Shown here: in pieces, positions 1-63,677 of the stretch
How positions within the stretch are numbered: the first letter of the stretch is position 1
How the letters are laid out: each line of letters begins with the position of its first letter
DNA from: an uncultured bacterium
GTDB lineage: Bacteria; Omnitrophota; Omnitrophia; Omnitrophales; Abzuiibacteriaceae
Direction of reading: 5' to 3'
Assembly (NCBI GenBank): GCA_964387845.1
Contig: CAYLXA010000009.1
Span: forward strand, 42,098-106,097
Length of the DNA stretch: 64,000 bases
Translations under genes and position numbers: made by a program
Notes under the pieces: model-generated
The model's input: only the letters and a program-made list of their open reading frames with translations
What the model was told of the DNA's origin: nothing
Databases searched by the model: none

Positions 1-3000
1 CGTTCAGATAATCGCGTGCAAGCTTAAAATATTCGTTCTTAAAGCCCTGAAACCGCTCAAGCCAATCTGTTTGCTCAGGATCTATTTTTGAAAGCGCAAG
101 TTCGGTGGTTCTTTCCGCGTGATCAACAAGCTGAGTAATCAACGCTCGCATATCTTCAAGACTATAGGCCGTTGCGGTCTTTGAAGCTTTACTGTGTCCG
201 GCATTAGTATCTTGCGTTCCGGATTTGATTCGCCTAATTATCACAGCCGCCGCCAATCCAAGAACTCCGATAACACCGACGGCTACCTGCCCAAAACTAA
301 TCTCCGAAAAATAACCCTCAAAAGTTTCTTTCAAGCCGACGGACCGGACAATTGGCCCAAAAGCAAAAACCAGGACGCCGGCGGCAACAAACGCGCTTAT
401 CGCGAGCCACTTCGTCCGGCCGGTTAAGCTTTCAAGCGAATCCGTCCTTAATTCCGAGCGGCTACCGTAGTCGGGCCGGCTGTAAAATTGGCTCCCTTTT
501 TGATGGACCGTAAATCCAATCGAATGAATGAGTTGAACCGCTTCGCGCCGGTTAATGGCATATCCGAGATTGCTTGCTAATAAAATCACCTTATCAACAG
601 TGACTCGGCGAATATTTTTCAATTCATCTAAAACCTTTATGAAAAGATCATTCGAATTTTTCTGAGCACGTAATTCGGAGCGCGATAATTGCTCAACCGT
701 TTCCCGAACAAATTGCGGAACTTCGCCGGTTGCACGCAACAGTTCTTTTCCAACTAACGTCCGGCGATGAAAATCAGATATCGGACGGTCACTGATGGCA
801 TCAGTAAGAGCTTTAAAAAGGTTCGGATCATTTTGTTTAAGAACCTCTAAAGATTGCGCATCAACTTGCTGACGCAATTCCGAACGGTTCAGAACGGCAT
901 TGAGGACATCACGTAAATCGGAAACGGCTTGGTCGAGATTTTCGAAGTCAATTTCTTGATCAGACCCGGCGATTTTCAATTTGGAGCCGTTCACTTCACC
1001 CTTCAGTCCGATATGCCTCAAGTTGGCTTCGACCGTCCGAGCCGTCACTTCGGGATTAAAACTCGCCACTGGCGCCAAAAATTCTTTGTCACCCGCTCTC
1101 ACCTGAATTTTCCACTCCGAACCGAAGCCGGAAATCAATTCTACTTGCAATTCCGAACGTACGGATTCATTGGCCGCTTTGACAATACCCGTAAATTCAT
1201 CGGCTTTGAGACTGGCGCCGCCGATTAAGCCACCGTCAATGTTCTTCTTTGCGACCAGCGAAGCCGCATTCTTTGGATTCATACTGCCGCCGTATTGAAT
1301 ACGCAATTTGGAAGCAACATCTTCGCCGTAAATGGAGAGAACTAGAGCGCGAATATAACGCTGGACCTCATCAGCCTGTTCGGGTGTTGCGGTTTTCCCA
1401 GTTCCGATGGCCCACACCGGCTCATAGGCAATTACGACATTCGCCATTTGTTCGGCCGTTACATCTTTCAAACCTTCGAGGATTTGTTTTTCAATCACGC
1501 CAAATGTTTTGAACGCTTCACGCTCTTCCAGTAATTCACCAATCGCCAAAATCGGCTTTAAACCATTTTTGAGCGCGATTTTGACTTTGTCGTTGACGAC
1601 CGGATCAGACTCAGTCAGCCGATGATCAGCCGCTTTCTTTAAATTTCCGTGACGCCTTTCTGAGTGGCCGATAATGACATATTGAACACCCAAATCTTTT
1701 AACTGAGCATAGGATATCTGGCTCGTTTGAGCGCCCGGTTCTTCAGCAGACAGATCTTGAGCACCCAACGTAAGCTGCTTGCTACCCGGATAGATTGTGG
1801 TTTCTCTTAATCTTTTTATTTCTCTGACAACTTCATCAATATGAACAAAAGAAGGTGCGATAATAATTTCCGGGTCATTTTCCAATTGAGTATTTCCGAG
1901 GCTTACGACAATTTGCTCTGTCAAAACTTGAGCACTTATTTTATCGTTCACTGCCATCTTCCAATTGCCGCCGATGATTGGGGTGCGCTTCGCATTTTCC
2001 GCCCGCGCAAGCGCTTCGGAATCGATTTTAAGTTTTTCAATTGCTCTCTGCGCCTGAAATGAATTCCAATCATTCATGATTTCATCAAACTTTTGACGAA
2101 GCTTGGGATGCAGCCGCTCATACCGAGTCTTACCGTGAACAACCCCCTTCTCTTCAAACAGCCATTGCCGCCAACGGATTGCTTCTTTGGTAAACCACTC
2201 TAAATCCTGCTCGCTGACATCAAGCAACTTAGCTAGCGCCTCGTCCGTCATGTCAAGGCCTTCTCTACGAAACCCGTCAACTGTCGGCGTAAAACCAATT
2301 AGCATGGGCCATTTCTTAGCGTTTTTGGTTCCTCTCGGATCTTTTACGCGCTCTGATGACCATATATCACGCCGCACATTTTCCCTGAAACCGGGAAATT
2401 CCGGTTTTCCATCCGGGCCTTCTTTGAAAACGTTGTGAGTGATAAAAATAACCTCTTTCGGCTGATTCTCGAAAAATTCAAACATGTTGTTTGTGTGCGC
2501 AATTTCGTCTCCCGCTTCAAAATCACCGTTCGCAAATGGACTGGGGGTCAATGCGCCCACCGTTCCGGCTGCCGCAGCCGTCGCGGCGCTGATCATCATC
2601 AAACCATACAGAATACCAGTGGCAGTATCCGGTGCCTGTCTTAAGAAAAATCCGCCTTTCGGAAGTTTAACGCCCCATTCAACCACTTGGAAAGAAACCG
2701 GCTTGCCCCAATTTTCCGGCAAGAAATCTTTTGCATTATCCGGAATGGATACCGTAAAACGGCTGTTCGGATGTGCCCATTGAAGCGCAGCCGCATAAAT
2801 TTTCATCAGTGATTCAGCAACGTCTTCATTGATATGCGGAGAAAGTTTAATCAACCGCGATTTAGCTTCTTTTTTGTTGATTTTTTCGAGATCAAACTCC
2901 TCCAAAATCGCACGAATCGTATCGGATTTGTCCGAAAGCCAGAATTTTTCCAAATCCTTCACAGGAACAGCCTTGAGCGCAATGTCAATCCGTTTCGGGT

Positions 3001-8644: not shown

Positions 8645-8651
8645 GTTTTTA

Positions 8652-8702: not shown

Positions 8703-8719
8703 AACTTACGACTGAAAAA

Positions 8720-39689: not shown

Positions 39690-41250
39690 TGCTTTCGTCA
39701 GATTCCCCTTTAATGTACCAGCGGCCGTTTTCCCATTTTTCCGTGAGCATGCGGCGGTAAAGTTCGGGGCCTTGGCTGAGGCCGACAGTCGGCGCGATTA
39801 CGACAACGTTAAAGCCAATCCGGTTCAGTTTTCGGATAAGGCGTTCTTTATGGAAACCGCCCGCGATTAAAACGGATTCGGGTTCCCGGTCAGCTTTGAT
39901 TTTCTCCGTGAGATTTTCCACGAGCGCCTGGTCGCGCATGTTGGCGATGCGGTAAAAAGATTGAAATTCATCGAGTGTTTCATCCAGTTTCGCCAAATTA
40001 GACGGTAACGAAATATTTTTTCCCTGCCCGCCGGCCTGCGCATTGAGAAAATTTTTCCATCCTGCGATTTTGAAGCGGTCGCGCTCGTCCATGAAAACCT
40101 GATACTGCTCAGGGACGAGCTCCAATTTGACAAGCGATTCCAGAATCACGAGATCGTTTGACATCCGGTAAACCCGCTTCCCTTCCGGTGTTTCCAAAAA
40201 TGCGTCTGCAATACGGTCTGTGAGCTTTGCTTTTTCATCGAAAAACGCGAGCGAATCAATCTGATCCTGCTTCCTCAAATACGGAATAGCGCCTTTGACG
40301 GACGGATACTTATTGGTATCGATCGAATTTTTTTCGGCAAGTTCGATTAATTTTTCGTAAAAATCGGCGCGCTTATTGGCGTCTTTCTCAACGCCGTGTT
40401 CCGTATCCAAAACCGCGCGCAGTTCTTTGGCATCGACGCGGCGCTGCATCTCACGGACCAATTGTGTGCGCTCGTAATCGACTTTTTCGAAATCGGCGGT
40501 AGATTCCAATTTAATCAAACTGGAAAGCACTTCGACGTTCGGATAATCCGAAATCGAGATATTTTTCTTAGCGGCGAACTGAAAAAGAAGTTTGGCTTCC
40601 TGGTGCAGGTTGTGTTTGGCTGTAAAATCCTCAAGCTGGGTTTCAAATTCTAAAAATTCCTTCGGATAGAGACCGGGCTTGACGGCATTCACCGCAATCC
40701 TGACCTGTTTGAGCTGGTCTAGCATGTTCTGCATGAGCGGCTCAACTTTGGTAAATGCAATCAGGTTTTCGTCATACAAAACCTGGCTTTCGATTCCCCA
40801 CAAGAGCAACGGATAGTCTTCCGTGAAGTTTAAATATTCTTCTCCCGAAATTTTGCCTTCGCGCATCAGTTTGGTGCCGATTTCAACGCGTTTCTCCTTA
40901 GGGCCCACGCGGTATTCCGACAAACTCACATCGCCGATTCCGCCTTCGACCAAAACAAGCCGGATGTCGCGCGCTTTGTGGAGCGACTCGATGATTTTTG
41001 CCATCGCTTTTTGAGCTTCAAAATTAACGTGTGCGTCTAGGATATAAAAGATATTGAAAGGCTTTGAGCCCGGATGGTATTCCGAAATGCGGCCGGTTTC
41101 TTCGGGAATCTTAATCTGCGCGATATCGGCAGGAAGCGACACTTTGGAGCTTGCTGAGTAAAGTTCAGGGGCGCCTAAAAAACTCAGGGAAGCTATCAGA
41201 GCTAGGCAAATTGCGGTTGTGCGAAAACGTGGAGTGAAAACCATATGCAA
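39676..41250 (-). CDS. ORF X, 524 aa. Signal-peptide protein with a tentative Tiki/TraB/GumN-superfamily hydrolase-like pattern. Candidate processing enzyme.
   Basis: Start is TTG at 41248..41250, 9 nt from the GGGAGG SD at 41260..41265. An alternative ATG lies at 41242..41244. Signal peptide MVFTPRFRTTAICLALIASLSFLGAPELYSAS. The N-terminal motif IFYILDAHV and C-terminal motif VLIAGGFHKERLIRKLNRIGFNVVVI resemble the two conserved blocks of TraB/GumN (hh-Y-L-G-T-H ... V-G-A-G-H-L ... G-Y-x-V). The match is weak. It has no RSELR motif. The stop is TAA at 39676..39678. Confidence 0.8.
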   Translation of the reverse strand: MHMVFTPRFRTTAICLALIASLSFLGAPELYSASSKVSLPADIAQIKIPEETGRISEYHPGSKPFNIFYILDAHVNFEAQKAMAKIIESLHKARDIRLVLVEGGIGDVSLSEYRVGPKEKRVEIGTKLMREGKISGEEYLNFTEDYPLLLWGIESQVLYDENLIAFTKVEPLMQNMLDQLKQVRIAVNAVKPGLYPKEFLEFETQLEDFTAKHNLHQEAKLLFQFAAKKNISISDYPNVEVLSSLIKLESTADFEKVDYERTQLVREMQRRVDAKELRAVLDTEHGVEKDANKRADFYEKLIELAEKNSIDTNKYPSVKGAIPYLRKQDQIDSLAFFDEKAKLTDRIADAFLETPEGKRVYRMSNDLVILESLVKLELVPEQYQVFMDERDRFKIAGWKNFLNAQAGGQGKNISLPSNLAKLDETLDEFQSFYRIANMRDQALVENLTEKIKADREPESVLIAGGFHKERLIRKLNRIGFNVVVIAPTVGLSQGPELYRRMLTEKWENGRWYIKGESDESSGKG

Positions 41251-49076: not shown

Positions 49077-49251
49077 TATTTGTTGGACATCCCTTTCAAA
49101 ACTGAGATTCTCTTGCCAGACTTTTCCAAAGTTTTAAGCTTCAGAGCCAGAAAAATACAATGGCTGCTTTTGATAATGGATTGATCTTTTCTGCGCCTGA
49201 CTGTGAGTTGGATCATTTTTTCTGCCGAATTTCCTGCCGAAAATTAAGAAA

Positions 49252-52300: not shown

Positions 52301-55300
52301 GCTTCGTCGCATCCATCTCGGAAAGCCGTCTTAATTCGCTCCGTGCGGCAATTTCATTGCGCAAAGCTGAAAATGCACTGGATATTTTCTCGTTCAATTC
52401 CGAGACTTGCGCTGCGGTTCCGGCCGAAATCATTTCGGCCAGCTTTCCTTCCGCCTGAGAAGCGGCGGAACCTTGAAACTGCGACTGCAGCGACTGCCAT
52501 TTTTCCTGAATTTCCCTGGAACGTGCGTGGAGCTGCGTGGAAAGTTCTGAAAGCTCTTTCAAATTTTTTGATTCGATTTTTGTTTTCGCGGCAAGCTTGA
52601 CAATTTCCTGGAGTTTTTCCTCCCAATACCGGAAACCAAACAGCCATAATTTCCCGCTTTGAACTTTCAACGCCGCATCCAAATCACTCATTGCTTCGAT
52701 CGCCGCGCTAAACTCCGCATAAAACCGTTCGGCCGGATAAGGCGTAGCAGCAACTTCATGAAATGCGGCAGCGAACGGCTTTGCAACATTGTCCACCAAA
52801 GTTTTCAAGGCGGCTTCTTTTGCTTTTATGTCGGATTTGTCGCTATTGAGAGTTTTGCGTGCCGAAGGAAGCTCTGAAGACCTGACTGTATCGGTAACAA
52901 ATATCTGGACAGCGTCATTTTCAACCAAATCTCCCAAAACCTGCAGTTGCGGCATTGAGTGAGACTGGGCCGTATAAATACCCGTCAAAATATTTAACAA
53001 TTCTTTATCTTGGGCATCTTTCCAATCGACTGATAAGTTTGAAACAGAAATAGGCGTTTTGCCAATATGCCTAAATTTGCTGGTGATAAAAATTTTAATT
53101 TGGCTTTCGCTGATTTCAGGAGCTATTTTGTCAAATTCACCCGCACCAAAAGCTTGTTTAACAACAGCGGCCAAAACCTGCTTCAATGTATTCCGGCCAC
53201 CAACCTCCAATTTAAATTGCCGGACATTTCCGCGTATGTTGAGATTGATCACGAAATAAACCTTAGCACTTCCCTCGCCAAGCTTGGGTTGATTGGGCTG
53301 GATTACCGTTGTGCCGGCGGCAGGCTCTGAAGCATCCGGTTTAAAAGGTGATTCAAGCGTTACCGAATCTGCGCTTGGCGCTTTTACGGAAACTGAAATA
53401 ACGAACTTGGTCAAGCTGGCTTTAACAGGTTTGAGAGCCGGGCTGGCAGCAAATTCAACATCAGTCAAGACCGGTTTTGGCGCAGGTTTCTTGACTTCTT
53501 CTTTCTTATTTCCTTTAGCATCGTGATCGGCCTTGCGGGCTTCTTCAACTTCAACTTGCGGGACACTTCTTACCGCCTGAATGAATACAACACCGTGCAA
53601 AGACTGAAATTCTTCCAATGCCTCAATCATCGCCTCATCCCATTTCTCGGGGCGCACACCTTTCGCTAATTGATTCAGGAAATAAAGCCGGCCTTGATTG
53701 ACAGCATGAAGCTCTGAAATCGCATCCCAAATTTCGCCGATTTCTTTGACAACCTCCGGTGTAATCCTGATTTTACTGTCGGTCAACTTCTTTGCGATAT
53801 CATCCCTGAGCGCTTTTTCTTCGCGCAATTCCGAACGTCTTTCTTTTTTTGGCATCAAACTTAATTGGGGCAGCGAATCCCAAACCCAAACGGGAGCGTA
53901 AACATCTTCCTTCCACTCGTAAGTTCCTTGCAATCCCTCAATTGTATCCACCACATGGCTTTCTTCATGACCAGCACCAGGCTCCACGATTAGATCAAAA
54001 TCTTCGTGTGTTTCTAGAATTTTTACAGCCATGTCGATGAAATGCGGTTCATTGGCAAGATTTATATAGGTATCCCGAACTGCTTGCTGGGTGGCTGTTA
54101 TCAAATGCTGTTCTTTTAATTTCTGTTGAATCAGCTTGATTGTAATATTCCGCTTCAATTTATTGATCGCCCCTTTAACAACCGGCCTGTTGTCAAATAA
54201 AGTAACAAACTCGGGTCTCTGCTCTGTAATAGGACGTGATTCCATGTGACTGCCACCATACGGAGCCAAACCATGCTTTGCCTCGTAGCCATCTTGCTCA
54301 GGCCAAACTTCAACGTTTTCAAATTCGCCTGTTTCTACTGTTATCAAAGTTTCTACACGCCTGAAATCATCTTTTAGCTTCTCCAAATGCGGCAAAGCAC
54401 GGTCATCTTCAAGATGCCCCAAAGCAATAACCGCAAGCCGGCGAGTTTCTGGATCATGTGAAGACAGGTTTTGGATTAAAACGTCATAAATAGAATCAAT
54501 TTTTCTAATTACTATTTCAATCTCTTTTGAATTCCTACTATTCGCTAACCTATTAATCAATTGCAGTATGCTCCTCAATTGATCCAGCGAATACTGATTA
54601 ATCGCCTTCGGCAACCCCCACTTTAATAAGTTTGACACGTCTACTTTCTTATAAACCAATGTGTTGACTAACATATCGATCGCTTGCTTGATTGATTTTC
54701 GCTCCAAATCTTCAAACCTCCGAAGCGCGGTACGCACAGATGACCATGAGCCTATAGTTTGCCAAAAAGCGGTCCAAGTTAATTTACTCGCCCTTAATTC
54801 AGACCTCGCAAGAATTTCGAGAACCGCAGCACCGCTATCAAGATCAGCTGCTTGCAGAATTTGGTCGCCCGTAAATGGTGCTTTGCCTGCGTCTTTGGCA
54901 TAATGCACCAAATATTCGAAACCCGCTTGGCGCGCACCTTCGAATGCATCCGGGTCGTTATCAATCAAAACCGTGTTCCGGGCGTCTTCGCCTATCACAG
55001 ACCTGAATCGTTCCAGAACCTTATCGAAAAATTCGGGGGCTTTGCCTTTCTTCATGCCCAATTCGGATGAGAGGATCACCAGCCGGGGATCAAACAAATT
55101 TCCGTAGTGCTTCTTCAAAAACCGAAGTAAATGTTCTTTGCCTGCCAATTCGAAATTCACCACCACGCCGATATGGACGCCGTTATCTTTGATGGCCAAA
55201 AGTTTCTCGATCACTTGCTTGATGGCGGGATTTTCCGGACGCTCTCCGAAAAAAATGTCTTTAAATTCATCCTCGCTGAGCCCTTTAAATCCGTCCTTTT

Positions 55301-58300
55301 GCGATAAAAATTCACGAATTGACTCAAACCAGGGGTAAAAAGCGTCAGGATCCGTGTAAAGCGCTTCGCGAATAGGGTCATCTTTATGCGGAACGAGCAA
55401 ATTTTTTAACTTATTAAAGTCATCTCCGCTCAGATCTTCCTTCCGTAAGCCGGATTTGACAATCAATCCTTTGGCGACTAACTCGGCAAATGCGGGACTG
55501 CGTTCGTCCGCCAAAACACCGCCAAAATCGATAAACATGGCGTTTGAATCAAGTGCATTCCTGAGTTCAGAGCGGGCTTGGGCGGCTTTTCTAAATGCAG
55601 AACGTAAAACTTGAGCATGGTAGATATCATCGGTCAATCGAAGAAAAACACCTTCACCGCCCTGATCTTTTCGATTATTAACCAATGCTCCAAATGAAGC
55701 TTCGGCGAACATGTCCCGGACCATGTGAGGGCTCACGTTATGAAGATAGCCTTTCGCAAATCCGATAGCCGGAAGGCCTTTGGATTCTTTTCCTTGCTCG
55801 GGTACAAAGGAAACAAAAAATGGTAAAAATTTATCGGGGTTCGCCAAAACCTGCTGATAGCTGATATGCTGATCTCCCGTCCCCTGAATGACCCATTCGA
55901 TCCCGAAATCGACTAAATATTTTTTCAAATTAACAAACTTATCCCCGTCTAAATAAATAAATGGGACAAACTTCCGGCCGCTTTGGTCCGCATAATCCAT
56001 CGCCTTTTTAATAAGATTCGAAAGACGGTCGGTATTCTGCCAAGAAATTCCTTCTTCTAAAGAAATGCTTGCTCGAAACGCCTGTCCGCCAAATACCGGG
56101 TTTACACTGAGCTCTTTGGCCTTTTGCTGCGTCAGCGCGAATTCATGTTCAACTGCATCCGCCATCTGCAAATCTTGAAGCCAAGATTCCAAAAGTTTTT
56201 TGCCTAATTCCACATAAGGCTGCCGGGTATATAAATTTTCCTGTACAATTTTTGTTGCAGGATTATCCAAATCATTTAAATTAACATCGTTAACGGAAAA
56301 ACCTTTCTCCTTCAAAGCGCGGGCAATCAAGCGGTTTCCAACGACGGTTGTAGCAGTATAAAAAATGGAAAATAATTTTCCGATTTGATCGGCGATAAAT
56401 TGTTTATCAGCTTTTTTAATTTTGGATGATTGCCCAAGATTCAATTCATCGATATCAAAGACGTTAAAACCCACGGGAGGCATTTGAATATCGGCCAAAT
56501 TAATTACCAAGCGGTTTGGCTGCTTAAAAAAGCGTCTCCATTGCGGCTGTTTTTGCCAATCTCTTTCGCGGATGGCAACCAAATTTGCGAAACCTTTTTG
56601 CCAAATGCTTTCGTTGAAGTTTTGCTCCACTGATTTTGCAAACCAGAAAAGATGATTCGGAACTATCAGTGCCACATCAGAAATTTCATCGTTCAAAATC
56701 CGGTTTCCAATTTCTTCTCCGCTGTTTCCACCACGCTTAATGGCTGAATTTCTACCGATCCAATATTCCAAAGGATTTAATCGATGGTAAGCCAGAAATG
56801 TCATCATGTGCAGATCGCCCGTCCAGCGTCCGCCGACATTGTCGAACATGGCGCCGAATCCGGGCGCATCGTCGCCCAAAACTTTATCAAGGCCGGAATT
56901 TCGGATAAATGCGGAAAGCCGGCTTTCAGCCGGGCGATCGGTGGTTTCAAAAAACATATTGCCTAGGACGGTCGCGAAAATTTCTTTTACTTTTGCTTCA
57001 CCCATCACGCCATTCATCTTTTTAGCGATAATTTGAATAAGGCTTGATTTGCGAAATCTAACTTCATCAATCTTGAAGAGATCGCGAGCAGAACGTTCTT
57101 TGCCATCAACAAAATTAATGTCGTGAAGCGTGTTAAAAACCGTATCGGCAAACTTTTGGATGTCCGGGTGCGCTTTTGCATCACTCATGAAATCCGGTTC
57201 TAAATTTGTTTTTTCTTGGGCAACTTTTTTCAAAAGAACATAAAAAATTTCTGAGAAAATCATCATCGTTTCATCGGTAGATCCCGACTTTGAACTCGGT
57301 ATTACGGCAATCTGATCCCAGCTGATTTGTTTTTCATCCACAATATTTTCCAAGGCTTTCTCGTAATCTTTTCCAAGCTCATATTCACCAAGAATATCTC
57401 CGCTTGCGGGATCCACAACTTGAAACACGTCCGCGATACCTTGAAACGGCGTATGCTGGCCGCCGATTCCGGTTTTAATGATAAGTTTGATTGGTTTTCC
57501 AAGACGCTCTTCACGTTTGATGAAAAATTTTTTCAATCGGTTGACACCATCTACAAATTCTTGCTGGCCCGTGCGGCCGGTCTCGGGATTTACGTCTTCG
57601 CTATAATAACCTTGGGTTCCTTTTACAGCAAATGAGCCGTGAATGGCAGCGCCTTCCGGAACTCCATAACCATCTTGATCATAGCCACCCTTCAAAAATC
57701 GAGCGGCCATTTCCGCATTGCCCTTGGCATCGAGCGGCGTGGTCAACTTCTCCGCTAGAATTTTCGCTTCTGCCGTTTCAGCCGCAATTGCTTCCGTATC
57801 CATTTTTCTTAATTCAGAGCGGGAATCTGGCAGATGGGAATTATCTTTTGTCGAATGATTTCGCCTCAACCAGCTAACAATATCAGGCCACAAAAGAATA
57901 CCAAAAATGCCGCCGACGGAAAAAACAAGAAGCCCTGCGATTGCAAGCCAATTGGGCTCATGCAGTTCCGAACGGGATACAAAATAAACTTCATTGCCGG
58001 TTTGTGCTGAGCTAAAAACATTCCCAACCCGCTTTTCGTTTTCAAAAACAGGCGTTCCGTGCGCATCCGGAACCACTTCGAACTGCTTGCCGGCTGAGTT
58101 TTTGAAAACGACGATGTAATTTTTATAAATCGCCTTCCAGTCGCCAAAAACCGGTGTCCATTCGGACGTGATCCGGATTTTTCCGGTATCAATAGATTTC
58201 CGGCTCGTCGTTGGATGCCTAAAACTCGGGCTCATTTCCGGTGCAATAGCTTCCGGTGCTGGGCGTCTCGGGCGCCGCTTCTCGATTTCCTGCGGCGTCA

Positions 58301-61300
58301 AAAGGCGCGGCTGCGTGCCTTCCAGAGCCGTAACATCATGCTGATAAGGTTTATAGACAATATAAAAAGGGATGCTTCCTAACAGAACGACGCCGAGCGC
58401 AATTCTGAGAACGCTCATTTTCCGCGCGCGTGTCCAGAACGGCTTGCGCCCAGTTTCTGCTCTTAATTCCGAGCGGCTGAAAATGCCCGGCGTTACAAGC
58501 TCCGCTTCGCGGTTGTAGCGAAGCAGATCGGCCGCCAGGATTTTGTTGCCTTCGTAAGTTTCCAGCGTCACCCACAATTCATTGTCTGTTACGGGCCTTC
58601 CCAAAGCCTTTTCCATGGCCGCACGCGCTTCGTCAACCTCAGCTGGCGATTTCGTCCAATTTTTGGTAGATAGGAAGCGCATGCCTGCAAGATGAGGAAT
58701 TCTTTCTTCCCATGAAAGTTTTAAATACTCTTCGATCGGAAGATTCCGGACCCCTTTAACACCAACAGCCGCAATTTTCATATCAGGGCCTGCAACACCC
58801 GTTGACTGCCACATGTTGGTTTCGGCTTTCACCACAACCGCATTGCCTGACTTAGCCGGCTTGGCATCTAAAATGCGCGGGAACTTCCGGCGGCCGCGCT
58901 CGGCAATGGCTTCACGCTCGGCCGGTGTTGCCCCGCGCAGTTCTTCGATGAATTCCCTGTCCGCTTGACCATCCTGTTTATAAAGGCCTATCACATAGCG
59001 CGGCGTAAAAAATGCGACGGCATCGTTAAACCAATAAGAATCAGTGGGCTTTACAACATCACGGTTTGCAACCTGCTTTTTAACTTCTTCATCGGCGCTG
59101 GAAACAATGTCGTTGGTGATATTGATATTCGGGTCTTCGGCAAGCTGATGAGCGCCGTTGTCTTCCATAATGATTAAGCTGCCGCCTTTTTGTCCGGGCG
59201 CGCGCGGCGAAACTTCCGGCTGGAAATCGAGCTCGCGATCGAGGAAAAGCCCCAGGGTTCTCAGCCAAACTTTGTCAAATTTGGATGCGTAATTGTCCAC
59301 ATTCTTGACGAAGGCCCACTTTACACCGGCGTCAACCATACGCAAAAGCTCGCCGCTTACAATCATTTGATGAAAATACTCGCCGTGCCCCAAAGGATCC
59401 CGCTCGCCTTCAAAAACAACAGCGTTTGTGTCACCGCTCGCTAATTTTTCCTTTACTTCATTAGATCTTGCGAGCGCCGCTTGAAAAGTTTCATCAGATG
59501 TGAATTTGCTGCGCATTTTTTCCACTTTTTCCGGTTTTTCAACAAACTTGGCGCCGAGCGGCTGATGGAAAAATCCGACTTGTTCGTTGTGCAGGCCGTA
59601 ATGACGATTTTTTCCGAGCATTTCGTCGTGTTCCGGCCGGTATTCATCATTCGAAAGAAATCCGATTAGATTTTCCCACACCTTTGTGACCGGCATTCCG
59701 GCATTCCTTACCTCTTCAGCAACCGCACGGAAAAGCCGGGAAAGATTTTCGCCGAACTCACCGAAATAGGTTGTCACCTTTCCATCGCTTGTGCGCCCGA
59801 TAGGCACAGCCGCTTTTGATAAAATTTCGCCGTCTACGTCCATAGCCAGCACTTCTTCGGGCGCTTCTTTGGTGTTCATGCGTGAGCTTGCGCCCGCAAC
59901 CAGCATCGAAATATAGCCTTCGCCTCTATCCAGTGACTTGACGGCGATAGCTTCAAGCCGCAGGGCTTCCTGCGGGTCAATTTCTGTAATATCAAACACA
60001 TCTTCTTTGCGGCTCGCGCGGAACGGACGCGAAATCGGTGTAGTTGCCAATTCCCCCCGCCAATAAGCCAATCCGGTCTCAACTTCGCTTCTTAACTCCG
60101 AGCGTGAAGCTTCAAAACGGCTCAAATCAAGCGAGCCGGTGGCGAGAGCCGCCGCCGCTCCTCCCGCATCTTTGGATTTCTTGAATGTGCCCTCAACGAT
60201 GAAAGAAAGCGCCCCGAGATTTCCGGTATTTTGAACCGTCAGCTTGGGATGGCCATTCGTCAGTCTAATGTCACGAATATCGCTCAGCGTTACTTCCAGC
60301 TTACTATCTATTCGATCCGGCTTGAGCAGAGTGTCCTGAGTCGCGGTAGAACGCAAAGCATTCCGCACCGCACTTTTAATGGCTTGAGACAAACTCTTTT
60401 TTGTAAACTCCCGCTTTCGGCCTTCATCAGCTAAGGTCAATTCCGTGATTTTAACTGCAGATTCGTCCTCTGCTTTTTCTGATTGCCTGAGCTCTGCACG
60501 AGATTTAGCAGCAATTACTTTTACATTAATGAGAACGTTACGCGGCAGTGTGTTGATGGAAACGGTTGTCCGTGCCGGTTGGTCGCTTTCGGGTGGAAAG
60601 GTTGTTTTCCATATGGAGTTATACTCCGGAAAATCTCTTGCCATATCCGAAAGAGATACTCGCACCGCTAAGATGTTTTCCCACGAGGACCCCTCTTTTT
60701 CTAGCTGGGTCCGGATATTTTGAATGGCCGCTTGAACCTGCGCCCCGATTCCTTCCGCTCTGATCTCGCCATTGTCATTCTCAGGACCTACGGCCTCTAA
60801 AACAACAAGCTCGGCGGGTAATGACTCCGGCACTTTGGCAATTGCATTAACTTCAAATGCGATCGGCGTCGGCAGCGCAACGACTTCGATAATCGTGTGC
60901 TTGGGTTCATGGCCGACTTGTTTGAAATGCTCTGCCCAAACACGTTCAAATATCGCGCGCTCATCATCGTTATAATCTGTGAGAAACACTTCCATTTCCG
61001 TAATTGCCTTCCATGTAACACCCGCTGCTTCCAGAATAAATTCAACATTGGCAAAGGTTGAACGCATTTGGGTTGCAATATCACGTGAAAGAACTTTGCC
61101 TTTGTCATCTTGATGAACGCCTGGAATTCGGTCTGAACCAAGCTTGCGAGGGCCAACACCTGAAAGAAAAAGATGATCTTGAAACCGTCTGGCATGAGGG
61201 TATGCCCCAACTGCTTTCGGGGCGCGATCGCTATTGATTGCTTCGCCAATCCGCGGTTCAGCGCGACGAGGTTTTTCTCGATCTCTTATTCGCAATCTTT

Positions 61301-63677
61301 CATTCAAATCTTCATGGATTGACTTGTATCTTCTTTCCAATTTTCTCACTTCACTACCTGCCATATCCACTGCATGGGCTTGATGAGGATCGCGAAAAGG
61401 TCCATCACTTGCTTGCACCGTCATCAACCAATTCGCTCTTGCATTATTAAGTTGTCGTTCAACTTGAAACAGTTCTGCTTGAAGCTCAGCTATGCGATCG
61501 CTGCGCAGCTCGGCTCTGGCTTTGGTTGAAGGAGAAAACGAGAGAATGGGAGAATAATATATATTATTTAAACTTAATAAATAATTGATAAATAATAAAT
61601 ATTGTGGTAAGCTAGCGGCCGTAATGAAATCGAATGGCTTATTAACCGAATCGAAGCGTGACTTTATCCAGCGGTTTATGCTTAACCTGCTTTGCATTAT
61701 TGCTGCATCCGCCCTGGCTAGCAATTTCTTTACAGCAATGCCATTGGGTGTTAGGATTTGTCTTGGCAGTGGCGCTTTAGTTGCTCTTGTGATCGGATTT
61801 TTTATCAAATAAGGAGGAAATAACAATGTTTGGAGCACTGCTTGTACTATCCATGACTTTGATATGCGCTGCCATAATGATCGTTGATTACTATCAACGA
61901 AAGCACCGCCGTCATCACTCCTGATTTTTCCCGTTTCAGCGTTTTCCCGAAGTTCGGAACGGTCAATAGGCACAACTTTTGCCAGGTAATTTCTAGGAGG
62001 AATACGGAATGTGAGCGAATCTTCTATCGTTGGATGTTCAAAAACAAATTGATAATCTTGCCTCATGTTTTTGATTAACCATGCTTCTCTTACAAGCTCT
62101 CTTAGATTTGTGTGGCCCCAATCCAGAAAATGATACACGCCGGGGTCCTGCTTATGGGCATCAGTATATAACTTTATAACTGCTTCAATGGTAAATTGAA
62201 TCCATTCTTCCAGTTCTTGTGGATCTTTCAAACTCGCCGTCAAAGGACGTACAACCTGCCGTAAACTACGTCGTGGGATTCGAATGCCTGCCATATTAAT
62301 CTCGTTCTTCATGCGCCAGACGATAGGTTCAACGTCACGGTTTAGCATCACAAAATAAGTAACAAAACTTCCCACTGCACCGATACCCAATAGGCCTATG
62401 TGCCAGTTTTTCAGTAGAGAATCTGCTACTTCTGAGATTTGACGCAACTCGGAGCGGGATTCTCCAGCGCTAGGCGATTCCGCCAAAATGCGCGGCGGAT
62501 CCGTCTTTCTTTGTGGCGGAAAGTGATAGGCGTTAGGTTGTTTTGATTCACTTAACGTTTGACGCTTATCACTTAACGCTAGATTCGGAAGCCCGAGAAG
62601 CTCCCGAAATTCGGAGCGTTGAGCAGCTTTTACGAGTTCATAGCTACCGGCAAAAACAAAGCCAAGCGCGATAAACACAGAGGCTTTTGAAGTCGAGCTC
62701 ACATCCGGAATGAAGCTGTTCAGTATTTTGTTTACCAGATAGAGCAACATTGCAAATGGTATTGCAAGAACCATCGTCTCAAGGTCACTTCTTCTAAAAG
62801 CGCCGCCAGCGCTCCTAATTTTCCTCGTTTTAGTGCCTTCCCGAAGCCCAGACCTATCCTCAGACAAAATAGTTTGACTACCAGCTTCTTGCCCTGCCGG
62901 AACAACCAACACCTTTTGATATACCGTCGAAACGCTCCAGCCGCCTGTGCTCTCTTCCTGCAGTTCCAGTTTGTAACCTTGGTTCTTAAGCGCCCAGGCT
63001 TGCTCTAAAATCTCGCTGAGATAATGCTCTAACCCGTAAAAATTTCTAGAAAAGAAAGGCCCTCTTTTCTCTGCATGTAAAAGTACGTCGAGCTCAACTA
63101 GAAATTCGGTTACAAATTCATCAAACGCAAATTCGTTTGCTGACGGTTCGCTCTGCATTTTATTTTTGATAAACTCGGCCCCTTTTTGAACAACGAATCT
63201 GGGCAGGCGGCGGGATCTTCCATAATCATACAAACTTTTGTCTAGCCTATTTTCAATATTTCTGAGACGGCTAGCTTTACTCTTCGCCATCGCCAAGGCA
63301 ACGAGCACTGTAAATGCGCCTGACGCAAAAGCAGCCATCAGCATGAAGACCGAAACATCCGAAACGCGTAACTCGGAGCGGGATTTATCAATTGCGGAGT
63401 GCGAAGTGTCAAATGCGGATTGATCGCTTCCATTCCGCATTCCCTGCCTAGCCGGCAGGCGGGCGAAATCCGCATTCCGCACTGGAAGCCCGAGAAGCTC
63501 GCGGAGTTCAGAACGGCCTACAATGGAGGCGGCTAATTTCTTGGGAGTAACGGTGTTTAAACTTTTAAATGCGGAAATAACGGACGGTGCATCCGAGTAA
63601 GCAACGGAATTGGTAAAAGAAAAAGCAAGGACGAGCGTTAATGCGAGAGATTTTGTGAGAAATCGATTGAATTTCAC
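49365..63677 (-). CDS. Giant mosaic polyprotein E, 4770 aa, built from hexose-phosphate and UDP-sugar metabolism modules.
   Basis: ORF-track ORF. GTG start at 63675..63677 with AAAGAGG about 10 nt upstream. TAA at 49365..49367. Leader (M)KFNRFLTKSLALTLVLAFSFTNSVAYSD. Confidence 0.85.
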   Translation of the reverse strand: MKFNRFLTKSLALTLVLAFSFTNSVAYSDAPSVISAFKSLNTVTPKKLAASIVGRSELRELLGLPVRNADFARLPARQGMRNGSDQSAFDTSHSAIDKSRSELRVSDVSVFMLMAAFASGAFTVLVALAMAKSKASRLRNIENRLDKSLYDYGRSRRLPRFVVQKGAEFIKNKMQSEPSANEFAFDEFVTEFLVELDVLLHAEKRGPFFSRNFYGLEHYLSEILEQAWALKNQGYKLELQEESTGGWSVSTVYQKVLVVPAGQEAGSQTILSEDRSGLREGTKTRKIRSAGGAFRRSDLETMVLAIPFAMLLYLVNKILNSFIPDVSSTSKASVFIALGFVFAGSYELVKAAQRSEFRELLGLPNLALSDKRQTLSESKQPNAYHFPPQRKTDPPRILAESPSAGESRSELRQISEVADSLLKNWHIGLLGIGAVGSFVTYFVMLNRDVEPIVWRMKNEINMAGIRIPRRSLRQVVRPLTASLKDPQELEEWIQFTIEAVIKLYTDAHKQDPGVYHFLDWGHTNLRELVREAWLIKNMRQDYQFVFEHPTIEDSLTFRIPPRNYLAKVVPIDRSELRENAETGKIRSDDGGAFVDSNQRSLWQRISKSWIVQAVLQTLLFPPYLIKNPITRATKAPLPRQILTPNGIAVKKLLARADAAIMQSRLSINRWIKSRFDSVNKPFDFITAASLPQYLLFINYLLSLNNIYYSPILSFSPSTKARAELRSDRIAELQAELFQVERQLNNARANWLMTVQASDGPFRDPHQAHAVDMAGSEVRKLERRYKSIHEDLNERLRIRDREKPRRAEPRIGEAINSDRAPKAVGAYPHARRFQDHLFLSGVGPRKLGSDRIPGVHQDDKGKVLSRDIATQMRSTFANVEFILEAAGVTWKAITEMEVFLTDYNDDERAIFERVWAEHFKQVGHEPKHTIIEVVALPTPIAFEVNAIAKVPESLPAELVVLEAVGPENDNGEIRAEGIGAQVQAAIQNIRTQLEKEGSSWENILAVRVSLSDMARDFPEYNSIWKTTFPPESDQPARTTVSINTLPRNVLINVKVIAAKSRAELRQSEKAEDESAVKITELTLADEGRKREFTKKSLSQAIKSAVRNALRSTATQDTLLKPDRIDSKLEVTLSDIRDIRLTNGHPKLTVQNTGNLGALSFIVEGTFKKSKDAGGAAAALATGSLDLSRFEASRSELRSEVETGLAYWRGELATTPISRPFRASRKEDVFDITEIDPQEALRLEAIAVKSLDRGEGYISMLVAGASSRMNTKEAPEEVLAMDVDGEILSKAAVPIGRTSDGKVTTYFGEFGENLSRLFRAVAEEVRNAGMPVTKVWENLIGFLSNDEYRPEHDEMLGKNRHYGLHNEQVGFFHQPLGAKFVEKPEKVEKMRSKFTSDETFQAALARSNEVKEKLASGDTNAVVFEGERDPLGHGEYFHQMIVSGELLRMVDAGVKWAFVKNVDNYASKFDKVWLRTLGLFLDRELDFQPEVSPRAPGQKGGSLIIMEDNGAHQLAEDPNINITNDIVSSADEEVKKQVANRDVVKPTDSYWFNDAVAFFTPRYVIGLYKQDGQADREFIEELRGATPAEREAIAERGRRKFPRILDAKPAKSGNAVVVKAETNMWQSTGVAGPDMKIAAVGVKGVRNLPIEEYLKLSWEERIPHLAGMRFLSTKNWTKSPAEVDEARAAMEKALGRPVTDNELWVTLETYEGNKILAADLLRYNREAELVTPGIFSRSELRAETGRKPFWTRARKMSVLRIALGVVLLGSIPFYIVYKPYQHDVTALEGTQPRLLTPQEIEKRRPRRPAPEAIAPEMSPSFRHPTTSRKSIDTGKIRITSEWTPVFGDWKAIYKNYIVVFKNSAGKQFEVVPDAHGTPVFENEKRVGNVFSSAQTGNEVYFVSRSELHEPNWLAIAGLLVFSVGGIFGILLWPDIVSWLRRNHSTKDNSHLPDSRSELRKMDTEAIAAETAEAKILAEKLTTPLDAKGNAEMAARFLKGGYDQDGYGVPEGAAIHGSFAVKGTQGYYSEDVNPETGRTGQQEFVDGVNRLKKFFIKREERLGKPIKLIIKTGIGGQHTPFQGIADVFQVVDPASGDILGEYELGKDYEKALENIVDEKQISWDQIAVIPSSKSGSTDETMMIFSEIFYVLLKKVAQEKTNLEPDFMSDAKAHPDIQKFADTVFNTLHDINFVDGKERSARDLFKIDEVRFRKSSLIQIIAKKMNGVMGEAKVKEIFATVLGNMFFETTDRPAESRLSAFIRNSGLDKVLGDDAPGFGAMFDNVGGRWTGDLHMMTFLAYHRLNPLEYWIGRNSAIKRGGNSGEEIGNRILNDEISDVALIVPNHLFWFAKSVEQNFNESIWQKGFANLVAIRERDWQKQPQWRRFFKQPNRLVINLADIQMPPVGFNVFDIDELNLGQSSKIKKADKQFIADQIGKLFSIFYTATTVVGNRLIARALKEKGFSVNDVNLNDLDNPATKIVQENLYTRQPYVELGKKLLESWLQDLQMADAVEHEFALTQQKAKELSVNPVFGGQAFRASISLEEGISWQNTDRLSNLIKKAMDYADQSGRKFVPFIYLDGDKFVNLKKYLVDFGIEWVIQGTGDQHISYQQVLANPDKFLPFFVSFVPEQGKESKGLPAIGFAKGYLHNVSPHMVRDMFAEASFGALVNNRKDQGGEGVFLRLTDDIYHAQVLRSAFRKAAQARSELRNALDSNAMFIDFGGVLADERSPAFAELVAKGLIVKSGLRKEDLSGDDFNKLKNLLVPHKDDPIREALYTDPDAFYPWFESIREFLSQKDGFKGLSEDEFKDIFFGERPENPAIKQVIEKLLAIKDNGVHIGVVVNFELAGKEHLLRFLKKHYGNLFDPRLVILSSELGMKKGKAPEFFDKVLERFRSVIGEDARNTVLIDNDPDAFEGARQAGFEYLVHYAKDAGKAPFTGDQILQAADLDSGAAVLEILARSELRASKLTWTAFWQTIGSWSSVRTALRRFEDLERKSIKQAIDMLVNTLVYKKVDVSNLLKWGLPKAINQYSLDQLRSILQLINRLANSRNSKEIEIVIRKIDSIYDVLIQNLSSHDPETRRLAVIALGHLEDDRALPHLEKLKDDFRRVETLITVETGEFENVEVWPEQDGYEAKHGLAPYGGSHMESRPITEQRPEFVTLFDNRPVVKGAINKLKRNITIKLIQQKLKEQHLITATQQAVRDTYINLANEPHFIDMAVKILETHEDFDLIVEPGAGHEESHVVDTIEGLQGTYEWKEDVYAPVWVWDSLPQLSLMPKKERRSELREEKALRDDIAKKLTDSKIRITPEVVKEIGEIWDAISELHAVNQGRLYFLNQLAKGVRPEKWDEAMIEALEEFQSLHGVVFIQAVRSVPQVEVEEARKADHDAKGNKKEEVKKPAPKPVLTDVEFAASPALKPVKASLTKFVISVSVKAPSADSVTLESPFKPDASEPAAGTTVIQPNQPKLGEGSAKVYFVINLNIRGNVRQFKLEVGGRNTLKQVLAAVVKQAFGAGEFDKIAPEISESQIKIFITSKFRHIGKTPISVSNLSVDWKDAQDKELLNILTGIYTAQSHSMPQLQVLGDLVENDAVQIFVTDTVRSSELPSARKTLNSDKSDIKAKEAALKTLVDNVAKPFAAAFHEVAATPYPAERFYAEFSAAIEAMSDLDAALKVQSGKLWLFGFRYWEEKLQEIVKLAAKTKIESKNLKELSELSTQLHARSREIQEKWQSLQSQFQGSAASQAEGKLAEMISAGTAAQVSELNEKISSAFSALRNEIAARSELRRLSEMDATKLISKYIRMKATEADETLVKLMARDYDYRSRDKEHAPSPKLWFLWGLTWARMAFEKAKKSGSKNETVVIARDARKIEPELVEALTAGFLYAGLDVVYTAEDGPNAATSYSWAVREIQPLVSVLLTSSHVASTDEIRGAKVSIQDEEGRLASLTTQEIKAVSLPMVQKYMADYGWMVHDAGERSGYIRALNVDVNTVRITTLVGRVAGIGGSAANLFNLADQLRKSDFPEKVLSDWEQRIAGYVMFQKPFEGLRIAIDGAHTPSGYLAEAVFKNLGAEAVLINGDVQSITGMHKADPSIMANLEELRTKMSDENIDIGLAFDLDGDRGAIVIKRKDGSFLVLPPDNLMAILIPFLVNRGGYHSRSSEHVAVISDVLSTLGVADAAGENGIETFITDSGYPFLKAKAKELKGKGYSIPMLSERSGHAWLDVTGEYENPIAVAVLSVIQVAQYAQEHKTQNPFPFEAAFEHYAKPYKQSTRFQPPFQASLLQKLAGDPRNDTGYQYSDTATPNPKIIALGRDLTVEKAIQEFSKEKEFLSPAGIFKVREVITFKGEDGLYRFADIRFKDEAGKEAGRFVIRASSNDPTFVASYEVRVRTEGGETLESESVKNRYISTGGIVFDWLEREQLAHISGDTVKDGNTRTESASLAAYRQFLESRSELRASTETVHPKVAAAEAAFNAAQAALTEAEASKQKGAILNARVALAEKELDLRRAELQHLTPIAEEPDGTQLLNPSKWASASAAVNSAKEGLERVITERNKYTNPPERSNPWKVRSELRNSRTASADFQRLNAEDALNITDTRLSSLTKAHQAIGTQLQQNPGLRSELHRSMAADKLIHDSTSQGWVFARSIVFDEGLAPYYVQIAAQSNVRIGFVTPTRSELRFVDELNASLPIDRQILYAATPEKLAKLMRSKGIRTNIYFTDSSHEAEIVRSELSDYFTSVVLFTADMISSIRGRLGKAVEAIDQFIRSYQIVLSRA
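49368..50430 (-). other. C-terminal coiled-coil plus conserved C-terminal region of E, with at least five RSELR-type sites.
   Basis: ...KVRSELRNSRTASADF...GLRSELHRS...SIVFDEGLAPYYVQIAAQSNVRIGFVTPTRSELRFVDELNASLPIDRQILYAATPEKLAKLMRSKGIRTNIYFTDSSHEAEIVRSELSDYF...QIVLSRA*. Confidence 0.4.
50430..52120 (-). other. Module in E: alpha-D-phosphohexomutase (phosphoglucomutase/phosphomannomutase).
   Basis: ETVVIARDARKIEPELVEALTAGFLYAGLDVVYTAEDGPNA (~52085..52110), LLTSSHVAST (the phosphoserine-loop position), IAIDGAHTPSGY, GLAFDLDGDRGAIV (~51325..51350), PMLSERSGHAWL. Confidence 0.85.
54380..54480 (-). other. HEAT/PBS-lyase-like repeat in E.
   Basis: SHDPETRRLAVIALGHLEDDRALPHLEKLKDD. Confidence 0.35.
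54870..55560 (-). other. Module in E: HAD-superfamily phosphatase/hydrolase.
   Basis: MFIDFGGVLADERS (the DxG/D motif I-like FDxxGVL, ~55510..55550), HIGVVVNFELAGKEH, VLIDNDPDAFEGARQAGFEYL. Confidence 0.55.
55900..57750 (-). other. Module in E: glucose-6-phosphate isomerase family (SIS domains), divergent.
   Basis: KLIIKTGIGGQHTPFQGIADVFQ (~57420..57480), AVIPSSKSGSTDETMMIF (~57270..57310, the SKSGTT-ET signature), FDNVGGRWTGDLHMMTF (~56820..56860, GGR[YF]S-like). Confidence 0.7.
58700..59990 (-). other. Module in E: UDPGP-family nucleotide-sugar pyrophosphorylase-like (UTP-glucose-1-phosphate uridylyltransferase type).
   Basis: ISMLVAGASSRMNT (~59880..59930, compare L-N-G-G-L-G-T-x-M-G) and YFHQMIVSGELLRMVDAGVKWAFVKNVDNYASKFD (~59285..59330, compare NIDNLGA). 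Confidence 0.5.
60470..61240 (-). other. Modules in E: two tandem RidA/YjgF (endoribonuclease L-PSP) family domains.
   Basis: Copy 1: RAPKAVGAYPHARRFQDHLFLSGVGPRKLGSDRIPG...EMEVFLTD...HTIIEVVALPTPIAFEVNAIAKV (~60840..61240). Copy 2: ELVVLEAVGPENDNGEIRAEGIGAQVQAAIQNIRTQLEKEGSSWENILAVRVSLSD...TTVSINTLPRNVLINVKVIAA (~60470..60830). Confidence 0.75.
61561..61625. other. A 65-nt island of more than 85% AT inside the E coding frame that stays open in frame.
   Basis: gaataatatatattatttaaacttaataaataattgataaataataaatattgtggtaagc encodes SLPQYLLFINYLLSLNNIYYS. Contains -10-like TATAAT/TAATAT strings on both strands. Confidence 0.5.
61900..63150 (-). other. Internally duplicated module of unknown function in E (two copies, each ending ...TGKIRS-x-GGAF), plus TM helices.
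   Basis: Copy a: EFVTEFLVELDVLLHAEKRGPFFSRNFYGLEHYLSEILEQAWALKNQGYKLEL...TKTRKIRSAGGAFRRSD. Copy b: LEEWIQFTIEAVIKLYTDAHKQDPGVYHFLDWGHTNLRELVREAWLIKNMRQDYQFVFE...ETGKIRSDDGGAFVDSN. A third degenerate echo sits near 58300. Confidence 0.45.
63366..63380 (-). other. Example RSELR site in E (codons CGC TCC GAG TTA CGC).
   Basis: Plus strand gcgtaactcggagcg. Reads KSRSELRVSDVSV. Confidence 0.9.
63570..63677 (-). other. Leader of E: conserved Sec-like leader.
   Basis: (M)KFNRFLTKSLALTLVLAFSFTNSVAYSDAPSVISAF. First RSELR at about residue 56 (GRSELRELLGLP). Confidence 0.6.

Follow-up and report, generated by a model that had tools for sequence, protein, structure and literature searches.

A minus-strand array of giant genes

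We analysed a stretch of 64,000 nucleotides (nt), hereafter "the window", from an uncultured Omnitrophota bacterium (assembly GCA_964387845.1, contig CAYLXA010000009.1, positions 42,098 to 106,097). Its minus strand carries six co-directional genes: five giants, labelled polyproteins A, B, D, E and F, and the shorter ORF C (ORF, open reading frame), which sits between the 13.5-kb gene of D and the 7.8-kb gene of B (Table 1). The best explanation of the window is an operon-like array of an uncultivated Omnitrophota bacterium, an origin indicated by the few ORF C homologues with a named source, which are Candidatus Omnitrophica/Omnitrophota. How such a cell handles the giant proteins catalogued in this phylum is the question that the locus addresses.

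An initial annotation, made from the letters alone, had listed five long minus-strand frames of 8.6, 17.2, 13.5, 7.8 and 14.3 kb, and these sizes agree with the stop-free frames that we recomputed. It had also described a five-gene array with gaps of 38 to 288 nt; the giants are indeed co-directional, but the sixth gene, ORF C (522 aa), had been missed, and the gaps of the six-gene array (288, 44, 1, 271 and 75 nt) go down to a single nucleotide. As for a possible assembly artefact, a Logan contig of run SRR15237813 matches 16.6 kb of the window without a single difference; polyprotein A is found on a second contig of that run (16.8 kb, with no additional upstream DNA), and the proteins of the giants are also recorded on a 106-kb NCBI contig. 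The proposed search for syntenic loci in metagenomes returned related Omnitrophota contigs with the same giant-gene architecture. Given this identity in an independent assembly and the recurrence of the architecture in related metagenomes, we consider the frames real and not an assembly chimera. An exact pattern from the window is absent from the GTDB representative genomes.

It is, thus, hardly credible that the giants are an artefact or no genes at all, be it an assembly chimera, a synthetic construct, decayed pseudogenes or a misread megasynthase of the polyketide synthase/nonribosomal peptide synthetase type. Giant co-directional ORFs with AMP-binding and PP-binding matches do recall such megasynthases, which were our first guess from the ORF sizes; Pfam, however, finds no ketosynthase, acyltransferase, ketoreductase or condensation domains, and the single AMP-binding and single weak PP-binding matches lie in different proteins, outside any module set of these enzymes. 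Moreover, frames of 17 kb are stop-free, catalytic residues and catalytically needed cysteines are retained, and cysteine codons are absent in frame and frequent out of frame, as expected from selection at the protein level.

Pfam, run on each giant, recognises about 30 domains corresponding to about 17 enzymes, which cover, by a tally of matched stretches, about 40% of the 20.5 thousand amino acids (kaa) of the five giants; the count of at least 40 complete housekeeping enzymes in the initial annotation was thus too high. Several enzymes in one ORF are confirmed in D and E, with 17 Pfam families in D and more than 10 in E, and A (four enzymes) and B (one) are sparse. The remaining sequence consists of small modules with one or two transmembrane (TM) segments, as judged by hydropathy, or of stretches with no Pfam or NCBIfam match; NCBIfam has no match for the modules without assignment, for the C-terminal domain (CTD) described below or for ORF C. 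The enzymes look functional, as far as can be judged from the kept catalytic residues of the triosephosphate isomerase (TIM) module of F, which aligns to solved TIMs with E = 3e-56 and has its NWK, GHSERR and EPVWAIGTG motifs and its YGGS and GGASL loops intact. The earlier statement that catalytic residues are largely intact thus holds for TIM, the sole enzyme examined. A metagenome scan with the TIM cassette returned ordinary TIMs at 50% identity or less and was uninformative on stand-alone copies.

Table 1. Position of genes, stop-free frames, leaders, modules and an example junction in the window (BC, biotin carboxylase; CT, carboxyltransferase; MCM, methylmalonyl-CoA mutase).
Feature	Position	Strand	Remarks
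Polyprotein A	49365..63677	−	4770 aa, GTG start, leader, 15 [RK]SE[LF]R sites, 0 Cys
A: stop-free frame	49368-63731	−	4788 codons
A: leader	63585..63677	−	K/R-rich start, hydrophobic core, FSFTNSVAYSD
A: RidA x2	60834-61226	−	Pfam
A: UDPGP-like module	58473-60089	−	Pfam
A: HEAT	54366-54494	−	Pfam; single weak HEAT_2 match
A: PGM/PMM I-III (phosphoglucomutase)	51015-52154	−	Pfam
A: CTD	49368-49985	−	
Polyprotein B	41289..49076	−	2595 aa, leader, 16 motif sites, 0 Cys
B: stop-free frame	41292-49133	−	2614 codons
B: leader	48996-49076	−	
B: GDH (ELFV)	44694-45608	−	Pfam; sole recognisable enzyme of B
B: CTD	41292-41918	−	
ORF C	39676..41244	−	522 aa, N-terminal signal/anchor helix, 1 Cys, no RSELR
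ORF C: stop-free frame	39679-41250	−	
Polyprotein D	26148..39674	−	4508 aa from ATG, which is 1 nt past the ORF C stop; 2 Cys
D: stop-free frame	26151-39797	−	4549 codons
D: leader	39588-39674	−	
D: AprA-like methyltransferase	37530-39362	−	Pfam
D: MeaB x2 + MCM + B12-binding (IcmF-like)	31809-36152	−	Pfam
D: methyltransferase	31200-31538	−	Pfam
D: example junction site	30711..30725	−	D aa 2989-2993; homology to L003:11941-19305 resumes exactly there
D: BC + CT (acetyl-CoA carboxylase)	27519-30683	−	Pfam
D: P-loop kinase-like module	26925-27323	−	Pfam
D: CTD	26151-26789	−	
Polyprotein E	8720..25876	−	5718 aa, 0 Cys
E: stop-free frame	8723-25891	−	5723 codons
E: leader	25778-25876	−	
E: 3HCDH	24380-25201	−	Pfam
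E: ADH_zinc_N (ADH-like)		−	Pfam
E: MCM	19079-20593	−	Pfam
E: 3HCDH + AMP-binding (AMP-forming) acyl-CoA synthetase	14627-17509	−	Pfam
E: HpcH/HpaI lyase + MaoC hydratase + acyl-CoA dehydrogenase	9917-14047	−	Pfam
E: CTD	8723-9340	−	
Polyprotein F	2..8644	−	>2881 aa, C-terminus lost at window start, leader, 0 Cys
F: stop-free frame	2-8698	−	2899 codons, truncated at window start
F: leader	8558-8644	−	
F: Metallophos	6749-7084	−	Pfam
F: ACP-like PP-binding module	4544-4720	−	Pfam, weak
F: PEPCK	2198-4240	−	Pfam; in a single cassette with TIM
F: TIM	1175-1981	−	Pfam; followed by a TM pair

Pentapeptide, leader, terminal domain and cysteine content of the giants

The giants are punctuated by a pentapeptide. 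[RK]SELR occurs at 59 sites in the five proteins, 51 of them the exact RSELR, for which 0.036 occurrences are expected from composition; single proteins hold 8 to 14 copies of RSELR, against at most two to three for any 5-mer in shuffled sequences. The codons behind the motif are mixed, arginine and leucine being each encoded by all six of their codons and serine by both TCN and AGY, which argues that selection acts on the peptide and not on DNA or RNA; a nucleotide-level signal or a recoding event at RSELR is ruled out on the same ground. The residues on either side are free to vary, apart from a slight preference for small ones at positions −1 and +1. The sites bracket whole enzymes and are present after each leader and before each CTD. 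In D, for example, biotin carboxylase has a site 9 residues ahead of its first profile position, and the following one lies 20 residues past the end of the carboxyltransferase. Within cassettes, the motif is missing between some fused enzymes (e.g., PEPCK-TIM, BC-CT). A conserved short site at the junctions between mature units, which is what one looks for in a polyprotein, is, thus, provided by the 59 [RK]SELR sites. We found nothing relevant in the literature on RSELR, on Omnitrophota polyproteins or on fused Omnitrophica glycolytic enzymes.

Several of the modules with one or two TM segments in polyprotein B are bounded by the motif. Internal duplications are also visible in B, the TM-hairpin modules at residues 201-406 and 652-741 being 57% identical, and two of its junctions (aa 647 and 920; window 46854-47138 and 46305-46319) have the longer context S(V/A)LPSHLAKSELR in common.

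All five giants begin with a leader made of a K/R-rich start, a hydrophobic core of 12 to 15 residues and then ..FSFT.S.AYSD; by eye and alignment, it resembles the n-h-c organisation of Sec-type signals, A-Y-S|D being a putative AxA-type cleavage site, and the N-termini are thus signal-peptide-like, where the earlier description had spoken of signal-peptide-bearing fusions. Class III (prepilin), Tat, lipoprotein and sortase-type signals, considered by eye, do not fit the leader or the C-terminus. About 25 aa past the leader stands an extended first motif, (R)SELRxLLGLP, which reads RSELRELLGLP in A (63501-63515).

At the other end, the giants finish with a HAD-like CTD of about 205 aa that begins at RSELR (the C-terminus of F falls outside the window). 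The motif lies 179 to 213 aa from the C-terminus in all 14 family members aligned, which come from several genomes; this alignment has no invariant columns other than R, E, L and R of the motif, and the last residue is alanine in 13 of the 14. A structure model of the CTD gives pLDDT values below 50 to residues 4-10, at its N-terminal edge, which overlap the motif (residues 2-6). We did not find in the CTD the Rossmannoid fold with catalytic motif I (DxD) that defines the HAD superfamily. Eleven matches to the CTD were obtained in the representative protein library, and a CTD alignment gave no match in a set of 5.8 billion proteins, probably owing to the word-candidate filter of that search. 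One of the eleven, P0041 (283 aa), is a minimal member reduced to a signal peptide, short spacer, RSELR and CTD, and its existence makes a separate function of the CTD probable.

Other members depart from the standard layout. P0046 (530 aa) begins with MKHKTLRSELR and has no leader. L006:344-5971 (UDPGP + GDH) and its neighbour L006:6212-9892 (enolase) have identical ends of about 200 aa, i.e., the entire CTD, which suggests a recent duplication or gene conversion of this domain. L003:2247-4835 has a leader and no CTD, L003:4878-9863 a CTD and no leader; the two are 42 nt apart and resemble a single polyprotein that a stop or frameshift has interrupted, or that is somehow translated across the gap.

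The giants are also nearly devoid of cysteine, with 2 residues in 20.5 kaa (about 0.01%) against about 0.4-1.3% in neighbouring ordinary genes. Both belong to a CxxC in D (GVCPLCHKHH), just upstream of the carboxyltransferase, which presumably corresponds to the AccD zinc ribbon VCPKCDHH. Each giant ORF has 0 to 2 cysteine codons in frame, against 65 to 326 in its other two frames. The 18 family members compared, about 41 kaa in all, contain six cysteines: this CxxC pair, the KKCGH pair of isocitrate lyase in P0047, a single residue in the leader of L006:6212-9892 and another in P0041. Throughout the family, the residue is kept only at catalytic or zinc sites and in signal peptides. In the TIM of F, an alanine (ILAIGE) aligns to the cysteine of T. 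maritima TIM (ILCVGE), which we take to be the widely conserved Cys126. By this sequence evidence, the enzymes are under purifying selection and tolerate cysteine only where indispensable. Ordinary neighbour genes in related loci (FtsH, AsmA-like, QRPTase, lipoprotein, bAvd) have normal cysteine contents and no motif. A genome-wide loss of cysteine is ruled out, as these neighbours, ORF C and catalytic sites keep theirs and out-of-frame cysteine codons are common. Such depletion is typical of proteins that are translocated unfolded or live outside the cytoplasm; the near-absolute purge raises a separate puzzle, namely where and how these proteins fold, and offers a natural set of Cys-free enzyme designs.

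Cassette shuffling, ORF C and other lineages

Relatives carry leader-bearing large proteins with PGK + PGM, enolase, PPDK, HMGL, acetyl-CoA carboxylase (ACC), MeaB + MCM, or ICL + TIM + GDH + malate synthase. In order to compare the giants with these relatives, we used BLASTP, with coordinates in D counted from its ATG. Homologous blocks begin and end at the motif in both partners: residues 89-735 and 2984-4072 of D match L003:11941-19305 at 462-1101 and 1101-2244, respectively; D 1123-2654 matches P0040 at 98-1707; and A 1192-1735 matches L006:344-5971 at 86-623. At the junctions printed out, similarity ends at the pentapeptide on one side and persists on the other. The methyltransferase and ACC cassettes are adjacent in the relative, and D has four cassettes inserted between them; the MeaB/mutase cassette of D is, in another genome, a separate gene made of leader, cassette and CTD (P0040). 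On this sequence evidence, the cassettes are the units of evolutionary shuffling and the number of genes into which they are packed is fluid, which explains the versions of 0.9 to 2.7 kaa seen in relatives. The closest relative, with an ORF C 86% identical, has a gene that the window lacks: 118 aa long and of the bAvd/23S_rRNA_IVP type (L003:11613-11969; also in L002, L004 and L005), the accessory gene type of diversity-generating retroelements, it separates the ORF C homologue from the polyprotein that follows.

ORF C is the only gene of the array that is neither giant nor punctuated. Its structure model (pLDDT 87) consists of an N-terminal helix, an alpha/beta core and a large helical insert, and the core has the alpha/beta fold of the Tiki/TraB/EreA/ChaN superfamily, with RRSP among the fold matches. 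Among 35 homologues, H72 (..QDAH), E100 (VEGG), R437 and H465 (AGGFH) are invariant. No family model matches above threshold; PF04187 is hit weakly in 17 of the 35 members (best E 2.7e-4, 18.9 bits against a cut-off of 27.7). Judging from the model, ORF C is a hydrolase of the Tiki/EreA/ChaN superfamily.

The ORF C-like family extends over the phylum, with at least 462 confirmed loci in GTDB genomes. Most of the 80 loci listed are Omnitrophota, and some are labelled as Planctomycetia metagenome-assembled genomes. In 43 of the 58 loci with enough flanking sequence, the module is tied to giants: in 18, it is the N-terminal part of a longer ORF, and in 25, an ORF that codes for 800 aa or more comes directly after it. 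On its upstream side, the ORF C-like gene has in many Omnitrophota genomes another ORF, exceeding 3 kaa (L040:1-9696, L078:1-9762, L016:1-9318, L034:1-9774 and L081:1-9747); these proteins have normal or high cysteine contents (0.8-1.9%) and no repeated pentapeptide, so two classes of giant gene flank the ORF C-like hydrolase.

Some of the giants linked to ORF C in other Omnitrophota lineages are poor in cysteine and over-represent other pentapeptides: SGARLAE (GARLA) occurs six times in L084, which has no cysteine, GARMA seven times in L063, G[AS]R[ALM]A eight times in L089 and ARFTE four times in L014. Such lineage-specific pentapeptides hint at a co-evolution of protease and site. A different kind of repeated short motif is seen in P0048, a multi-enzyme giant of Candidatus Omnitrophica (3384 aa, with GDH among its content): normal in cysteine and devoid of RSELR, it carries many repeated Ser-rich "SSP" stretches (14 "SSP" by count, several of which read (S)SSP[VAI] by eye).

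Processing, location and known systems

We lean, by a modest margin over even odds, towards the reading that the giants are polyprotein precursors processed at or just after [RK]SELR. Each would consist of a Sec-type leader, a chain of cassettes (gluconeogenesis, methylmalonyl-CoA and acyl-CoA enzymes, small membrane modules and modules without assignment) and the CTD. Cutting at or just after RSELR would free enzymes starting 7 to 16 residues ahead of their canonical fold, i.e., with near-native N-termini, and leave a short C-terminal tail; small membrane proteins and the CTD would be released as well, and some cassettes would stay multi-enzyme (MeaB-MCM-B12, BC-CT, PEPCK-TIM). A single transcript and a single translation event would give a fixed stoichiometry, and the cassette format would let modules move between genes. 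ORF C could be the protease; giants of other lineages carry it as their N-terminal module, in the manner of a viral leader protease. The sequences show the genes and their domains, the enrichment and placement of the motif, the cysteine purge, the shuffling of cassettes, and the fold and linkage of ORF C, and from these we infer that cleavage occurs, which protease acts and where processing and catalysis happen; the arguments for cleavage are that the motif is invariant with free flanks and stands after each leader, before each CTD and at cassette boundaries, that the N-terminal edge of the CTD, overlapping the motif, is disordered in a single model, that several cargo enzymes are oligomeric (TIM is a dimer, GDH a hexamer, acyl-CoA dehydrogenase a tetramer and RidA a trimer), and that motifs vary among lineages, as expected if site and protease co-evolve.

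Several observations speak against this processing. Cleavage products have not been observed so far, and neither Pfam nor NCBIfam finds a peptidase domain inside the polyproteins. Within the folded CTD, further RSELR-like copies stand where helices begin, which is odd for a pure cleavage site. Many Omnitrophota giants have no repeated 5-mer, so the punctuation is limited to certain lineages and is not general. ORF C is our best candidate for the processing enzyme, a tentative proposal in which we place limited confidence; one has to keep in mind that the Tiki superfamily also includes esterases and haem-binding proteins, and that ORF C need not be a protease. Lastly, a Sec-like leader on cofactor-dependent cytoplasmic enzymes makes no coherent topology. 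An alternative lead for the processing enzyme is offered by P0042, a family member from another genome with a multi-TM module at residues ~120-420; its EExxxR and HxxxN motifs are, we assume, those typical of CPBP (CAAX/Abi) intramembrane proteases, which makes this CPBP-like module a candidate, and the window has no such module.

The pattern could also be that of uncleaved, membrane-tethered mega-enzymes forming a covalent metabolon, in which RSELR would be a hinge or a motif docking the CTD, ORF C or a scaffold; we regard this as possible and rather doubtful. Omnitrophota giants have been read in print as membrane-anchored architectures, TM-like segments do lie between modules, the RSELR-like copies at the N-termini of CTD helices suit a binding or helix-capping element, and the enzymes fused without the motif (PEPCK-TIM, BC-CT) indicate that these proteins tolerate fusion in itself. 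A pentapeptide that is strictly invariant and has free flanks is, however, typical of an enzyme recognition site and not of a linker; the motif, moreover, follows each leader and precedes each CTD, and obligate oligomers would have to assemble inside chains of 5 kaa.

As for location, the leader and the cysteine purge suggest export, and the cofactor needs of the enzymes suggest the cytoplasm; a hydropathy scan gives no consistent topology and places some enzymes "outside". In a proposal compatible with cleavage, the giants would be an exported or injected multi-enzyme cargo, leaving by the Sec route and perhaps handed over to a host or prey cell, processed outside the producer cytoplasm and acting in the periplasm, at the surface or in a host. 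Signal-peptide-like N-termini on all giants and on ORF C point that way, as do the cysteine depletion relative to the neighbours and the extracytoplasmic or effector nature of Tiki, ChaN, HopBA1 and RRSP. West-Roberts et al. (bioRxiv 10.1101/2023.11.21.568195) also predicted glycolytic domains to be extracellular, and they describe a predatory or epibiotic lifestyle. Nevertheless, ATP/GTP, CoA esters, NAD(H), FAD, biotin and B12, on which the enzymes depend, are unavailable in the periplasm; there is no evident benefit in exporting housekeeping enzymes, the cell would itself lack these steps if the giants hold its only copies, and no secretion-system gene was found in the window. We, thus, judge such a cargo unlikely. 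Its most specific form, in which a large share of central carbon and acyl-CoA metabolism would be produced as Sec-exported Cys-free polyproteins, cut extracytoplasmically at RSELR by a Tiki-like protease, and metabolism dependent on ATP, CoA and B12 would run in an extracytoplasmic compartment or in an attached host, strikes us as improbable; if true, it would mean that a bacterium outsources or injects metabolic enzymes as cassettes.

Giant multi-enzyme proteins of Omnitrophota are not new, contrary to the first description of the locus as unlike any known bacterial one. West-Roberts et al. (2023; bioRxiv 10.1101/2023.11.21.568195) described "Archaeovorins" with TIM, PGI, FBPase, PGM, FBA and PPDK domains and suggested cleavage, stating that the cleavage points are unknown and that this gap blocked their analysis; Nielsen & Lui (2026; bioRxiv 10.64898/2026.06.07.730766) defined a "multi-enzyme metabolic cluster" class with a signal-peptide-plus-TM topology. 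The window giants belong to the same phylum and share with these proteins the tiling of one ORF by many distinct enzyme domains, none dominating by copy number (A and B being sparse), and the signal peptide and/or TM helices. At 2595-5718 aa, they stay under the cut-offs of 10 kaa (Nielsen & Lui) and 30 kaa (West-Roberts "giant"). The hallmarks of Archaeovorins (HEAT repeats, GT5/GT1, SecA-DEAD, C39/S8 peptidases) come down here to one weak HEAT_2 match, and the cargo differs, with methylmalonyl-CoA/acyl-CoA and gluconeogenic enzymes. What is new with respect to both preprints, whose texts make no mention of them, is the junction motif, the cysteine depletion, the shared leader and CTD, and the Tiki-like partner. 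The initial proposal of a polyprotein expression strategy gains strong additional support from the junction motif, the leader and CTD and the co-located Tiki-superfamily hydrolase, and is less novel than claimed, multi-enzyme giants having already been published.

In its apparent working, the locus seems, by analogy, closest to viral polyproteins and to MARTX toxins. The polyproteins of picorna-, poty-, flavi- and alphaviruses likewise combine a long ORF, a conserved site that is short and variably flanked, a protease of their own and fixed stoichiometry, and the Omnitrophota candidate is N-terminal in other lineages, like a leader protease; here, in contrast, the genome is cellular, the cargo metabolic and the candidate of Tiki/EreA fold instead of chymotrypsin- or papain-like, and cleavage is a proposal. 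MARTX toxins of Vibrio are proteins of 3.5-5 kaa with shuffled interchangeable cassettes released site-specifically at inter-domain linkers. The likeness lies in this modularity and in their effector RRSP, a Tiki-superfamily protease that is among the fold matches of ORF C; unlike in MARTX, we found no RTX repeats or cysteine protease domain, a Sec-like leader is N-terminal where MARTX have a C-terminal type I secretion signal, and the cassettes are housekeeping enzymes and not toxins. Natural fusions (IcmF, Chloroflexus propionyl-CoA synthase, AROM, CAD, FAS) also join consecutive steps without a motif, as the window does within cassettes (IcmF-like MeaB + MCM + B12; BC + CT; 3HCDH + acyl-CoA synthetase), but they bring together two to eight activities of a single pathway and are not punctuated, leader-bearing or Cys-free.

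The locus, thus, offers a testable grammar: a leader, pentapeptide-delimited cassettes, a terminal domain and a linked Tiki-like hydrolase. Should cleavage be confirmed, it would be a cellular counterpart of viral polyprotein expression, used for housekeeping metabolism; the motif already provides a simple rule for dividing dark giant proteins into units for structure prediction.

As for the rest of the window, tRNA and Rfam scans found none, and no terminator-like site was seen in the three gaps scanned, where promoter and terminator scans were uninformative. The GC content ranges from 42 to 52% and reveals no foreign-looking island. In nearly all 2-kb bins of positions 1-64000 the GC skew is below zero, and the cumulative skew drops monotonically to −2.19, which fits minus-strand transcription of the entire window. 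The sole plus-strand frame of at least 250 codons, a stop-free frame of 273 codons antisense to polyprotein E (16358-17176), is probably a by-product of codon composition.

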